Origin: a virus
Lineage: Duplodnaviria; Heunggongvirae; Uroviricota; Caudoviricetes
Length of the DNA stretch: 43,448 bases
Direction: 5' to 3' (one strand)
Virus record (IMG/VR): IMGVR_UViG_2861058914_000003
Position 1 is the stretch's first letter, and every line of letters starts with the position of its first letter. The position numbers were made by a program. This document shows, in pieces, positions 12,001-15,000 of this stretch.

Positions 12001-15000
12001 AACAGAGAAATATGGTAACTGTAAGCCTTGCGGACCGTTTCGGCAATGTTGTTCCTGGTTATGCTGTCACATTGTCTTTACCAGCAGGGATAACTCAAGT
12101 TGGTGGTGAACATGCTGTTTCAACTGACGAAAATGGTAATGCTATTTTTGCGTTAATAAGCTCCACTCCGGGGTCTTACGTGATTACAGCTCATGCTGGT
12201 TCTCAGATGTCTACTGAGTTAACAGTGACCTTTGCATCAAATATGACCGGAGCTTCACTGTCACTGACGCCTGAAAGCAGTAGTTTAATTTCCAATATTC
12301 CTGCTAATGGTAAGGATGCAGCGGTATTAGATGTGCAGCTGACAAATACGAATGCGTCGGTCAATGGGCAAAAGATTCAGCTCATCACCTCATCTGAAGG
12401 ATTATCTGTACCAACAAATATCGTGACTGATTCAACAGGGCATGTTTCTGTTCCGCTTACAACGGTGAAAGCTGGTGAGTACACGGTGACTGCACGGGTG
12501 ACTGACGGTTCCCATAGCGTGGAATCTGGCAGCGTTAAGTTAACTTTTGTGCCCGATGTTGCTTCTGCAGAACTGAATATGAGTGTATCAAAACAGGAGA
12601 TTGTGGCCGATGGCAGTGAAAACGCAACAGTAAACATTCAGTTGGTTGATGCGAATAACAATGCGTTTACAGGCGAGGTGGATTTAACGATTACACCATC
12701 GACGGGAGCATCATTGACCAGTAGTAATCTGCAACTGGATGCTCATGGACAGGCAACAACGCAGTTCACTGCATCGAAATCAGGCCAGTACACAATTCAG
12801 GCCGAGTATGTTCTGGATGGGAAACGCATAACCGCAAGCCAGAATATTGATGCCGTGACGGATGTGAAGGGGGCTGTGTTGGAGATCACATCATCTGCAT
12901 CTTCGGCTGTAGTGAGCGATACCAACAATCTGGTATTTACGTTACTGTTGAAAAGTAAGTCAGGCGAAGCATTAAGTGGTCGAGCATTGAATGTTAAGAC
13001 ATCTGGGCCGTCTAAATATGGTGCGTTGGTGGTTGATAAAACCACAGTAACGACTGATGAGAACGGTCAGGCTACGGTAAGCGTACATGGTCGAACGGTT
13101 GGTTCGTATAAATTAACGGCGACCTTAAACGAACTTGGCAGTGATGTTAGCGCGGTGAAATCATTCTCCCTGTACGCTGATGACGCAAATGGAGTATTGA
13201 CTCTAACAAAAGATCCTGGTTATGAGACAAACGATGGATCTCCAGTAGGTATTTATGCTCGATTTGTCGATCATTTTGGAAACCCATTATCTGGTACGGT
13301 TGAGTTTTCTGCTGGTAGTGAAGATAGTCCAGACTCTCAACGGGTCAAAATGGAGCCTGCTACAGTAACGTTACACTGGACAGGTAATGCAGCTTCGGAA
13401 TTCAGCACCTATGAAAGTGGTTATCACTGGATTAAGGCCAAAATAACGAATAGCAAAAATACATATGAGAAAACAATAAGGACTTATGTTGTAAAACTAC
13501 CTGAAAAGGATAGTTAACAAAATTGAATGGGGAGGGCTTAGCCCTCCCTCTTTTTACAGGTTAGCGTTTGGGTTTTGTTGTTGGGGAGCTGTTTTTATAG
13601 GCGCTCCCAGGTTTTTAGTAAACCACTCAACGACTCTGTTTATAATAATTGGCTGATACCATGTCTTATCGCCATGCTCGGCCCCTTCTACCAGCACGTA
13701 CTCAGCGTTATCACCGTTCTTCTTCAACATCCTGAATAGTTTGGCGCTTTGCTCAGGTGAAACCAGAGTGTCTTTGCTACCATGCATAATAAGAAATGGG
13801 GGTTTTACTCCTTTCATATGTCCGATTGGACTGGCGTTTAGCGCTTTTTCTTTTGACGCTGTGATGGGGGCTCCCGCAAAATTTCTGAATGCAGGGCCAT
13901 TGATCATTAAGGCTTCGGTTACGGCAGGAGAGCGATGAACCTCCTGCACTGATTCAGGGAACCCCTCGCCAATATTCAACAAGTCAGAAATCCCATAAAG
14001 TGTGGCAACTGCCTGAACATCTGAGGATTGCTGAAGAAAGTCACCTTTATCAAAGGTTTTGTCACCATTTGTAGTTCCCATCATCTGGGCAAGCCATCCA
14101 CCGGCAGAGTCACCCAGAACTCCGATTCTTTGAGGATCAATCCCATAATTGCTGGCATGCTCTCTCAGGTAACGTATTGCAGCTTTTCCATCCTCAACTG
14201 GTGCTGGAAATGTATCAGGAATTGTTCTGTATTCTACAGCGGCCACAACAAAACCAGCTTCTGCCAGAGCCATTCTCATTTCAATAAATTTGTCATGTTC
14301 AGAAGACATGAATCCGCCGCCGGGATAATAAATAATGGCTGGTTTTAAATCATTTGTTCGCGGGACAAGAACTGACATGTGAAGCTGTCTGACAGAACGA
14401 GTTCCTTTTATCTGGGAATAAACAACATCACCAATGAGATCGACCTGGTTTCTGGTCGGTGAAACACTAATGATATCTGCACCCGGGGTGTAACCAGGAA
14501 GATTAGTCTGGACAGGTGTTGCACAACTCCCGACCGACATGGCCATTGACATACCATACAATAGTGTTGCAGATGATAATATCTTGTTAATTTTCATGTT
14601 TTACATGCCTTGACTTATCGGATGAAATTCTCTTACTAAATTTAACGGCAGTTTAATAGCCGTACAACTCGTGGTAGCCAGGGAAATATCCCAGTCGTGG
14701 TTAAGGTTGTACTTGACGGCTATTATTTCAACAATGCTTAAAGTGAGAGCTTAAGGTTATGCGTATGTTTTACAGTCCGAGTAGATTCTGACCAATAGCT
14801 TCTTTGTATAATTCTGTCAGAAATAAATCTTGGCTTGCATGAAGTTTGAGACCTTATCTTGTTTGATTATGAATAATCAATTCGCCATAATTGTATCACC
14901 GGAGCCTGAACAACTCCGGTGACTTCTGCGCTAAACGGGGACGTTTATGCGCACACACAATCCAAACTCTCTTCTCCCTTCACAGATGCAGAAATGCACC

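Follow-up and report, generated by a model that had tools for sequence, protein, structure and literature searches.

What does an esterase gene do in a temperate phage of Escherichia coli, and on which esters would its product act? The question is raised by a DNA of 43,448 nucleotides from a tailed virus (Duplodnaviria; Heunggongvirae; Uroviricota; Caudoviricetes), IMG/VR record IMGVR_UViG_2861058914_000003, which was analyzed at its full length and is called the window here. An ORF finder detected on its minus strand an open reading frame (ORF), 13554 to 14597, with an ATG start, 347 codons, and a TAA stop. A preliminary description of this DNA had presented the product as a prophage-encoded, secreted lipoprotein esterase of the GDSAG family, encoded beside an adhesin and possibly acting on surface glycans, host substrates, or a phage receptor. 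We favor, with moderate confidence, the reading that the protein is an exported serine carboxylesterase of the BD-FAE / FaeD-like kind, that it would act on hydroxycinnamoyl or acetyl esters of plant and dietary origin, and that it is carried as a phage cargo cassette which is not coupled to the adhesin.

Part of this is already known. RefSeq, GenBank phage records, and PHROGs list the protein as an esterase or alpha/beta hydrolase, and the family, the fold, and the mechanism have been described. What is modestly new is the combination of a phage-borne copy, a Cys-ended signal peptide specific to E. coli, kinship to decarboxylase-linked alleles, and a high prevalence. In the literature that was searched we found no paper on this esterase, and "feruloyl esterase" was absent from the top matches listed for a prophage/lambdoid query; searches for WP_000700202, Lip_vut4, and BACEGG_01304 also returned nothing.

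Catalytic residues and family of the esterase

The gene is far beyond chance, with homologues down to E = 1e-221 and 2556 matches below 1e-10. The two motifs on which the preliminary description was built, YPGGGF and GDSAGG, were both found in the 347-residue ORF where it had placed them (Table 1). In an alignment of 45 homologues (32–79% identity), Ser164, Asp276, and His308 were invariant, as were Gly162, Gly166, and Gly167, while Gly93 and Gly94 showed conservation of at least 90%. In phmmer alignments, the three residues paired with the catalytic Ser, Asp, and His of the solved structures 6nkf, 6mly, and 6xyc. An AlphaFold2 (AF2) model built on the alignment had a mean pLDDT (predicted local distance difference test) of 91.6, and its only poorly defined parts were residues 1–30, which had low pLDDT and no secondary structure, and about the last 15 residues.

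Foldseek placed 6nkf first (E = 9e-29, TM 0.86), followed by 6xyc/6tkx (E = 4e-20) and 6mly (E = 3e-19), all above the classical esterases of the hormone-sensitive lipase (HSL) family; the TM (template modeling) values, normalized to the target, were 0.79–0.86. Because the triad is invariant, aligned to solved triads, and set in a confident model with fold matches, the catalytic machinery is complete as far as sequence can tell. The esterase claim was thus borne out, and an incomplete triad, which had been named as a possible weakness of it, did not appear on alignment. The protein is almost certainly a carboxylesterase.

Table 1. Positions of the esterase gene, its functional parts, and the adjoining features in the window
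Feature	Position	Strand	Basis or remark
Esterase coding sequence, BD-FAE-type alpha/beta hydrolase	13554..14597	−	ORF, PF20434, PHROG 3341, AF2 model, Foldseek
Predicted signal peptide, codons 1–24 (MKINK n-region, hydrophobic core, ...SVGS)	14526..14597	−	Sequence and hydropathy
Cys25 codon TGT, candidate lipidation site, +2 residue Ala	14523..14525	−	Sole Cys of the protein
YPGGGF oxyanion-hole loop, residues 91–96	14310..14327	−	Aligns with the Gly53 oxyanion loop region of BD-FAE
GDSAGG nucleophile elbow, residues 162–167; Ser164 at 14106–14108	14097..14114	−	Aligns with GDSSGG of 6nkf and Ser128 of BD-FAE
Catalytic Asp276 (HGSKDTLV)	13770..13772	−	Invariant; aligned with Asp of 6nkf, 6mly, 6xyc
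Catalytic His308 (GAEHGD)	13674..13676	−	Invariant; aligned with His of 6nkf, 6mly, 6xyc
Disordered C-terminal tail, residues 331–347, ending in conserved -NPNANL	13557..13607	−	Low pLDDT
Cassette-specific upstream region, presumed to hold the esterase promoter, 37.9% GC	14598..14861	−	Up to DLP12-type homology at about 14862
GC-rich 9-bp hairpin between the convergent stop codons	13529..13549	.	Scored as terminator on both strands
Inverse-autotransporter adhesin, IAT_beta and Invasin_D3/Big_1 repeats	9252..13517	+	Pfam

The best family match was Pfam BD-FAE (PF20434), with 153.9 bits against a cut-off of 26.8 (E = 5.7e-45) over profile positions 7–214 of 215. Abhydrolase_3 scored 81.3 bits, and a separate Peptidase_S9 match fell on the C-terminal half, which bears the Asp and the His and is of Peptidase_S9 type. 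Among phage families, the protein matched PHROG 3341 (phrog_3341, "esterase") at E = 1.9e-129, where phage copies are already filed, and RefSeq names the window protein "alpha/beta hydrolase." The closest solved structure by sequence was again 6nkf (E = 1.6e-37, 33% identity); the others were 6mly, a GH43-CE fusion, and 6xyc/6tkx.

The founder of PF20434 is BD-FAE (6TKX/6XYC), encoded in a xylan polysaccharide utilization locus (PUL) of Bacteroidetes, for which bifunctional feruloyl and acetyl-xylan esterase activity was demonstrated (PMC8165983). Its triad is Ser128/Asp237/His269, and its authors described a hybrid Abhydrolase_3/Peptidase_S9 architecture (PMC8165983). The window protein shares with it the Pfam family, the fold (TM 0.8), the aligned triad, and the division into an Abhydrolase_3-like N-terminal and a Peptidase_S9-like C-terminal half. 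The two differ in that identity is about 25%, BD-FAE reads YGSAWF where the window protein has YPGGGF, and the latter has a C-terminal -NPNANL tail; BD-FAE is also PUL-encoded, whereas here the gene is stand-alone cargo of an E. coli phage. Lip_vut4 (6NKF), an esterase/lipase from a goat rumen metagenome, has GDSSGG, HGDQDD, and GAGH aligned with the window motifs, but its deposited chain is without signal peptide or lipobox. By sequence, triad, and fold, the window protein passes as a member of BD-FAE, and feruloyl or acetyl-xylan esterase activity is predicted for it.

The label "GDSAG family" stood only in part. The GDSAGG elbow is present, and the protein resembles HSL family IV and E. coli Aes in this elbow, in a GGG oxyanion loop, and in an Abhydrolase_3-like N-terminal half. 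However, it has YPGGG, with Pro for the His of HGGG, and its Asp/His half is Peptidase_S9-like. All NCBIfam models of HSL subfamilies and of E. coli Aes scored five- to eight-fold under their cut-offs (GTSAG_HSLs 54.6/380, GESAG 47.4/430, GCSAG 32.2/410, acetyl esterase PRK10162 57.5/389). A filing under HSL family IV was rejected on these grounds, and BD-FAE was kept as the best family.

Sibling alleles and the probable substrate

The substrate class is suggested by two sibling alleles in which the esterase follows another gene. Allele P0288 (76% identical), which lies next to a SPATE autotransporter on IncFII plasmids, begins 13 bp past the end of a gene for a protein of 169 amino acids, and allele P0002 (79% identical) begins 34 bp past the end of its equivalent. 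This neighbor encodes a phenolic-acid decarboxylase (PF05870, E = 1e-83) that matches the ferulic acid decarboxylase 3nx1 of Enterobacter at E = 4e-93 and near-identical length. In the plasmid loci, a LysR gene lies adjacent to the decarboxylase gene and divergent from it. The esterase has a decarboxylase neighbor in Erwinia tracheiphila as well (71% identity), where the decarboxylase match comes in two pieces, apparently through a frameshift, and in a metagenome-assembled genome (MAG) of Selenomonas (44% identity). An exported esterase joined to a cytoplasmic hydroxycinnamate decarboxylase would follow a "release and detoxify" logic for plant phenolic esters.

The plasmid module of LysR, decarboxylase, and lipobox-esterase genes was found on E. 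coli IncFII plasmid contigs (L013–L016, 6491–9047) and in NZ_CP051739.1 (132741–136777). On the conjugative IncFII plasmids, it adjoins the SPATE autotransporter and toxin-antitoxin genes. Its esterase is 75–76% identical to that of the window, with a Cys-ended signal peptide and the same C-terminal tail. In contrast, the prophage copy lost, or never had, the decarboxylase and the regulator, and its upstream DNA is unrelated.

The nearest relatives of the esterase belong to plant-associated bacteria. The 120 best homologues were 63–80% identical, and those from outside E. coli came from Dickeya, Pectobacterium, Pantoea, Erwinia, Kosakonia, Klebsiella, Kluyvera, Rhizobium, and similar taxa; the exported proteins of Dickeya, Pectobacterium, Pantoea, Erwinia, Klebsiella, and Rhizobium were 63–72% identical. 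Pantoea accounted for 40 of the 73 plasmid matches, and the plasmids listed were from onion, radish, bean, alfalfa, and like sources.

In Dickeya, the Out type II system secretes the feruloyl esterase FaeD (PMC9007343). A Dickeya aquatica protein (P0068) that is homologous to the window protein over its full length, at 63% identity, is named "Ferulate esterase" by its source annotation and may correspond to FaeD. Both proteins are exported, but those of Dickeya have signal-peptidase-I sites and no Cys. D. aquatica (L011, LT615367.1) encodes two exported BD-FAE paralogues 3 kb apart, at 6001–7032 and 10089–11075, which are 63% and 47% identical to the window protein; either may correspond to the characterized FaeD, which together with FaeT makes up the feruloyl esterases of D. 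dadantii considered here. The second paralogue has a GASAGG motif and a divergent LysR neighbor.

Because the closest siblings stand behind a ferulic acid decarboxylase gene with a divergent LysR gene, we consider plant hydroxycinnamate esters, rather than surface glycans or phage receptors, as the presumed target. A hydroxycinnamoyl or acetyl ester of plant origin is the most likely substrate class, with roughly even odds. The enzyme would hydrolyze feruloyl, p-coumaroyl, caffeoyl, and/or acetyl esters on sugars of plants and diet or on quinic acid. Substrates able to reach the surface or the periplasm would include feruloylated or acetylated oligosaccharides, chlorogenic acid, and small alkyl esters. 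The prophage copy could then be a stand-alone derivative of the decarboxylase-esterase detoxification module of the sibling alleles.

Several observations weigh against so specific a substrate. No decarboxylase gene or remnant was detected upstream of the window esterase by tblastn and blastn against the sibling operons, and homology to these operons begins about 10 nt before the esterase ATG. The decarboxylase-esterase operon is rare, with 2 of 5426 complete E. coli genomes, compared with the common prophage copy. We looked for a general link to the decarboxylase in loci with 4-kb flanks, 80 of them from metagenomes and 45 viral, which were sampled by a profile search with a 14-sequence alignment; none was nearby, and none lay within 4 kb in the 67 metagenome loci that were not of E. 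coli type. This limits the link to the closest sibling alleles, E. tracheiphila, and the one Selenomonas MAG. In Klebsiella oxytoca, Pantoea, Dickeya zeae, and five gut metagenomes, the homologues were mostly stand-alone genes with heterogeneous, uninformative neighbors. The family also includes enzymes deposited as a "lipase" (6nkf) or as a short-chain esterase (Est2), and the specificity may be broad.

These points lend themselves to a plainer explanation, in which the protein is a generic short-chain carboxylesterase or lipase without preference for hydroxycinnamates, active for example on acetylated sugars, and the gene is near-neutral passenger cargo. The deposited lipase and the C3–C4 esterase Est2 among the BD-FAE-type relatives, the missing decarboxylase partner of the prophage copy, the uninformative contexts of most homologues, and recurrent disruption of the gene by insertion sequence (IS) elements are all compatible with it. 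We nevertheless regard it as unlikely, although worth keeping in view. The closest non-prophage alleles are operonic with a ferulic acid decarboxylase gene, joined by LysR on the plasmid; the same pairing is seen again in distant taxa; the clade is found mainly in plant-associated bacteria; and an intact gene is kept at 97–100% identity in about 12% of complete genomes.

IS elements (ISEc23, IS1, ISEc52) were repeatedly inserted in or beside the esterase gene (hits H1, H2, and H24). In strain FDAARGOS_1265 (L021, NZ_CP069583.1, 5164–7580), ISEc23 lies between the adhesin and esterase genes, the last codons of the latter are clipped, and the annotated product has 343 amino acids. The recurrence of such insertions suggests that the esterase is dispensable, and this too counts against the favored reading.

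Phage cargo often serves the lysogenic conversion of surface glycans. An envelope deacylase that modifies the bacterium's own surface (acetyl groups of O-antigen, lipopolysaccharide, or capsule) or host glycans, and so alters a phage receptor (superinfection exclusion) or immune recognition, would fit an envelope-directed esterase on a temperate phage, and BD-FAE enzymes do deacetylate polysaccharides. No gtr- or oac-type glycan-modification gene lies nearby, however, and none of the PADLOC defence models matched the esterase at E ≤ 0.01. The nearest relatives are plant-associated chromosomal and plasmid genes and the decarboxylase-linked alleles. The roles in surface-glycan or lipopolysaccharide deacylation and receptor modification that the preliminary description had offered thus found no support in homology or context, and we rate them as very improbable.

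Another esterase of lambdoid-prophage cargo in E. coli is NanS-p, a 9-O-acetyl-sialate esterase of Shiga toxin (Stx) prophages, which is of SGNH type. The two are alike as cargo that plausibly opens a gut-derived substrate. They differ in fold and family, and no SGNH family was among the Pfam matches of the window esterase, which likewise speaks against a surface deacylase.

A 58%-identical homologue on a human gut metagenome contig (L066, 4049–5065 and 5535–7142) lies by a 535-amino-acid FAD_binding_2 flavoprotein of fumarate-reductase type and near a di-haem cytochrome c peroxidase. As a single case, this context might hint that the acids set free by the esterase enter a reductive metabolism.

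Possible meaning for E. coli in the gut

Human colonic E. coli isolates that hydrolyze chlorogenate have been reported (PMC10340781), and our literature searches found no gene for this activity. The esterase cassette is a candidate. If the predicted chemistry is true, about 12% of complete E. coli genomes hold a phage-delivered enzyme that frees ferulic, caffeic, or p-coumaric acid or acetate from plant esters of the diet at the envelope; several of the carriers are human isolates. It would be a rare metabolic kind of lysogenic conversion, as against the toxin or defence kinds, and would provide a candidate gene for an E. coli activity that was described more than 20 years ago and to which no gene was assigned in the papers searched.

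A bolder proposal, which we consider rather unlikely, is that temperate coliphages spread a lipid-anchored, FaeD-like hydroxycinnamoyl esterase, a lysogenic conversion for the metabolism of dietary polyphenol and fiber esters that would be the basis of strain-variable chlorogenate or cinnamoyl esterase activity. Under this proposal, the E. coli clade would have given up secretion of the enzyme (signal peptidase I, type II) and kept it on the cell as a lipoprotein, and the conserved C-terminal -P(D/N)A(N/S)L tail would serve as a tag for sorting or recognition. Should the protein be a broad-specificity esterase only, the locus would still illustrate neatly how lambdoid phages exchange modular cargo in the nin-region slot. 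This slot holds the esterase alone, the esterase with the adhesin, or, in DLP12 of K-12, ybcL/ybcM.

Export and probable lipidation of the esterase

The N-terminus of the esterase reads MKINKILSSATLLYGMSMAMSVGS-C25-ATP, with a basic n-region and a hydrophobic core, and homologues of other genera have signal peptides at the same place. Sequence, hydropathy, and homologues together show a predicted Sec-type signal peptide, and the claim of export was upheld. The further claim, that the signal peptide is of lipoprotein type, was sustained in one respect and failed in another. The signal peptide ends in Cys25, and the N-terminus satisfies the PROSITE PS51257-type lipoprotein rule (Cys within 15–35, small residues before it). 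The strict lipobox, [LVI][ASTVI][GAS]C, is failed by V-G-S-C, which has Gly at −2.

Four E. coli allele clusters (SVGS-C-ATPVQ, VSAG-C-AAAPG, FSTG-C-TAITK, and FSTG-C-TAATG), which are 75–80% identical and have diverged around this residue, all have the Cys where the signal peptide ends. It was retained in 58 of 58 metagenome and viral loci of E. coli type. The exact window protein occurred on at least 1000 contigs, and a Tyr25 variant on four.

If the protein is not lipidated, signal peptidase I would cut at AMS|VGSC or VGS|C, and the product would be soluble in the periplasm or, as with its relatives in Dickeya, would be secreted by a type II system; this would fit either chemistry. The strict lipobox is not alone in weighing against lipidation. 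The lipobox is non-canonical in every E. coli allele, the siblings reading S-T-G-C and S-A-G-C; three residues before Cys25, A-M-S|V-G-S offers signal peptidase I a good site, and both candidate cleavage sites satisfy the −3/−1 rule. Homologues outside E. coli have ordinary A-x-A signal-peptidase-I sites without Cys, and rare Tyr25 variants exist. A 95%-identical variant on a metagenome contig (L032, OGQY01005156.1, 2503–3543) reads ...MSVGN-C-STTVQ, and its Asn at −1, judged by the sequence, suits neither signal peptidase II nor a VGS|C signal-peptidase-I site. The PROSITE-type rule, applied to the 181 window ORFs of at least 60 amino acids, picked out the esterase along with Rz1 and Bor/Iss, the two lipoproteins expected, but also two antisense ORFs that are false matches.

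Against signal peptidase I stand the single Cys at the exact end of the signal peptide in four alleles with divergent neighboring residues, its presence in every one of the 58 loci, and the rarity of the Tyr variant among the contigs. We therefore hold processing without lipidation to be a real but doubtful possibility, and Cys25 is probably lipidated. In E. coli, Ala at +2 leads to Lol-dependent sorting to the outer membrane. The precursor would thus be lipidated at Cys25 and sorted by Lol to the outer membrane, giving an esterase of about 35 kDa in the envelope.

Two 97% variants on IMG/VR contigs (L144 and L145) have ATA (Ile) at the position of the start codon. Their next in-frame Met is M16, and a start there would drop the signal peptide; alternatively, these copies may be silent.

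The C-terminus is also conserved. A C-terminal [AG][NSRDT]L was present in 88 of the 120 closest homologues, and five homologues of 317–318 amino acids without signal peptide were also without the C-terminal tail. The tail could be a tag for sorting, secretion, or PDZ recognition. In exported members of the clade, it ends in -(P/K)(D/N)A(N/S)L-COOH, of which the window has the form NPNANL. A 73%-identical homologue in Escherichia phage PHB10 (MK524177.1, 57 kb; 21963–22859) matches residues 32–330 only, the extent of the signal-peptide-less forms on Klebsiella and Enterobacter plasmids.

Prophage setting, cassette borders, and prevalence

E. coli 4/1-1 has at icd a lambdoid prophage to which the window is identical from int/xis through the tail genes, in agreement with the earlier view that the esterase is prophage-encoded. 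The genes follow in the order int-xis ... cI-type repressor, O, P, adhesin, esterase, ylcH-ybcN(ninB)-ninE-ybcO-rusA-ylcG-Q, lysis, bor/iss, and head and tail genes. The esterase region occurred in 734 of the 5426 complete E. coli genomes; in 668 of them a single place accounted for at least 80% of the query, and about one in eight of the complete genomes held the intact gene.

Eight isolated lambdoid phages, including 4A7, Lambda_4C10, Perceval, D2, 1W, 3W, and PhiR47_2, encode a 98.3%-identical protein without the adhesin. In these phages and in genomes such as that of strain 131, the order is P-ren-emrE-ybcK-esterase(−)-ylcH-ybcN. The DNA common to both arrangements begins at about 13550, 4 bp beyond the stop codon of the esterase, and from about 14862 onward the window is again homologous to DLP12-type prophages that lack the esterase. 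These borders make the esterase a self-contained, low-GC (guanine plus cytosine) cargo cassette, or moron, of about 1.3 kb in front of ylcH-ybcN(ninB). The GC content is 44.9% in the esterase coding sequence and 37.9% in the region upstream of it, with 51.2% for the whole window. The cassette has the features of a moron: presence/absence polymorphism in a conserved backbone, deviant GC, opposite strand, and a terminator hairpin. The hairpin at 13529–13549 lies outside the segment common with the adhesin-less phages, which have a different one at the equivalent spot (L002, 5979–6000).

The esterase gene lies on the strand opposite to the early-right operon, and for this reason its expression in the lysogen would be expected to depend on a promoter of its own. 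Some 240 bp of the DNA that precedes the ATG travel with the gene into an unrelated chromosomal context in Escherichia sp. MOD1-EC7003, and a weak AAGG Shine-Dalgarno sequence ends about 10 nt before the ATG. A sigma-70 scan of the minus strand upstream of the esterase found no promoter, and candidates picked by hand had at most 8 of 12 consensus positions, which counts against expression of this kind.

In MOD1-EC7003 (L003, 7926–9044), the esterase is 97% identical, Cys25 is kept, and the gene stands between bioA and ybhC, adjoining an emrE-like gene and not inside an intact prophage. On the K-12 map, the bioA-ybhC interval is the lambda attachment region.

The neighboring adhesin and other genes

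The preliminary description was right that the esterase gene is co-localized and convergent with that of the adhesin. The two genes stand tail to tail, their stop codons 36 bp apart with the terminator hairpin shared between them, and the junction was intact in 422 genomes, versus about 668 with the esterase. Such an arrangement could suggest that the esterase is an accessory of the adhesin, serving its processing, its release, or the modification of its ligand. We consider this scarcely credible. The esterase occurs without the adhesin in the eight isolated phages and in many genomes, about a third of those that carry it, with ybcK in its place, and the cassette border shared by both arrangements lies just beyond the stop codon of the esterase. 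When the ranked matches were sampled at even spacing, roughly a quarter of the matching genomes had the esterase only. In some sampled genomes, adhesin variants had no adjacent esterase match, and in others an IS element stood between the two genes. Because each gene occurs without the other and IS elements separate them, they are independent insertions: the adhesin, which sits where ren-emrE-ybcK stand in 4A7/DLP12-type phages, is a second, separate piece of cargo, nested with the esterase in this prophage lineage and not an obligate pair with it. With nothing pointing to coupling, the idea of an adhesin partner was rejected.

The adhesin has 1421 amino acids, with an IAT_beta domain and seven Invasin_D3/Big_1 domains. 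Its repeats at 10561–11623 consist of three tandem 357-bp copies that are 98% identical. A search of 13300–15200 against Rfam gave no match. Other envelope-directed cargo lies past the lysis genes, namely an ORF for an Rz1-type lipoprotein at 18442 (+) and Bor/Iss (PF06291) at 18715–19056 (−). A small TonB_C-domain protein is encoded at 19435–19815 (+), also downstream of the lysis genes.

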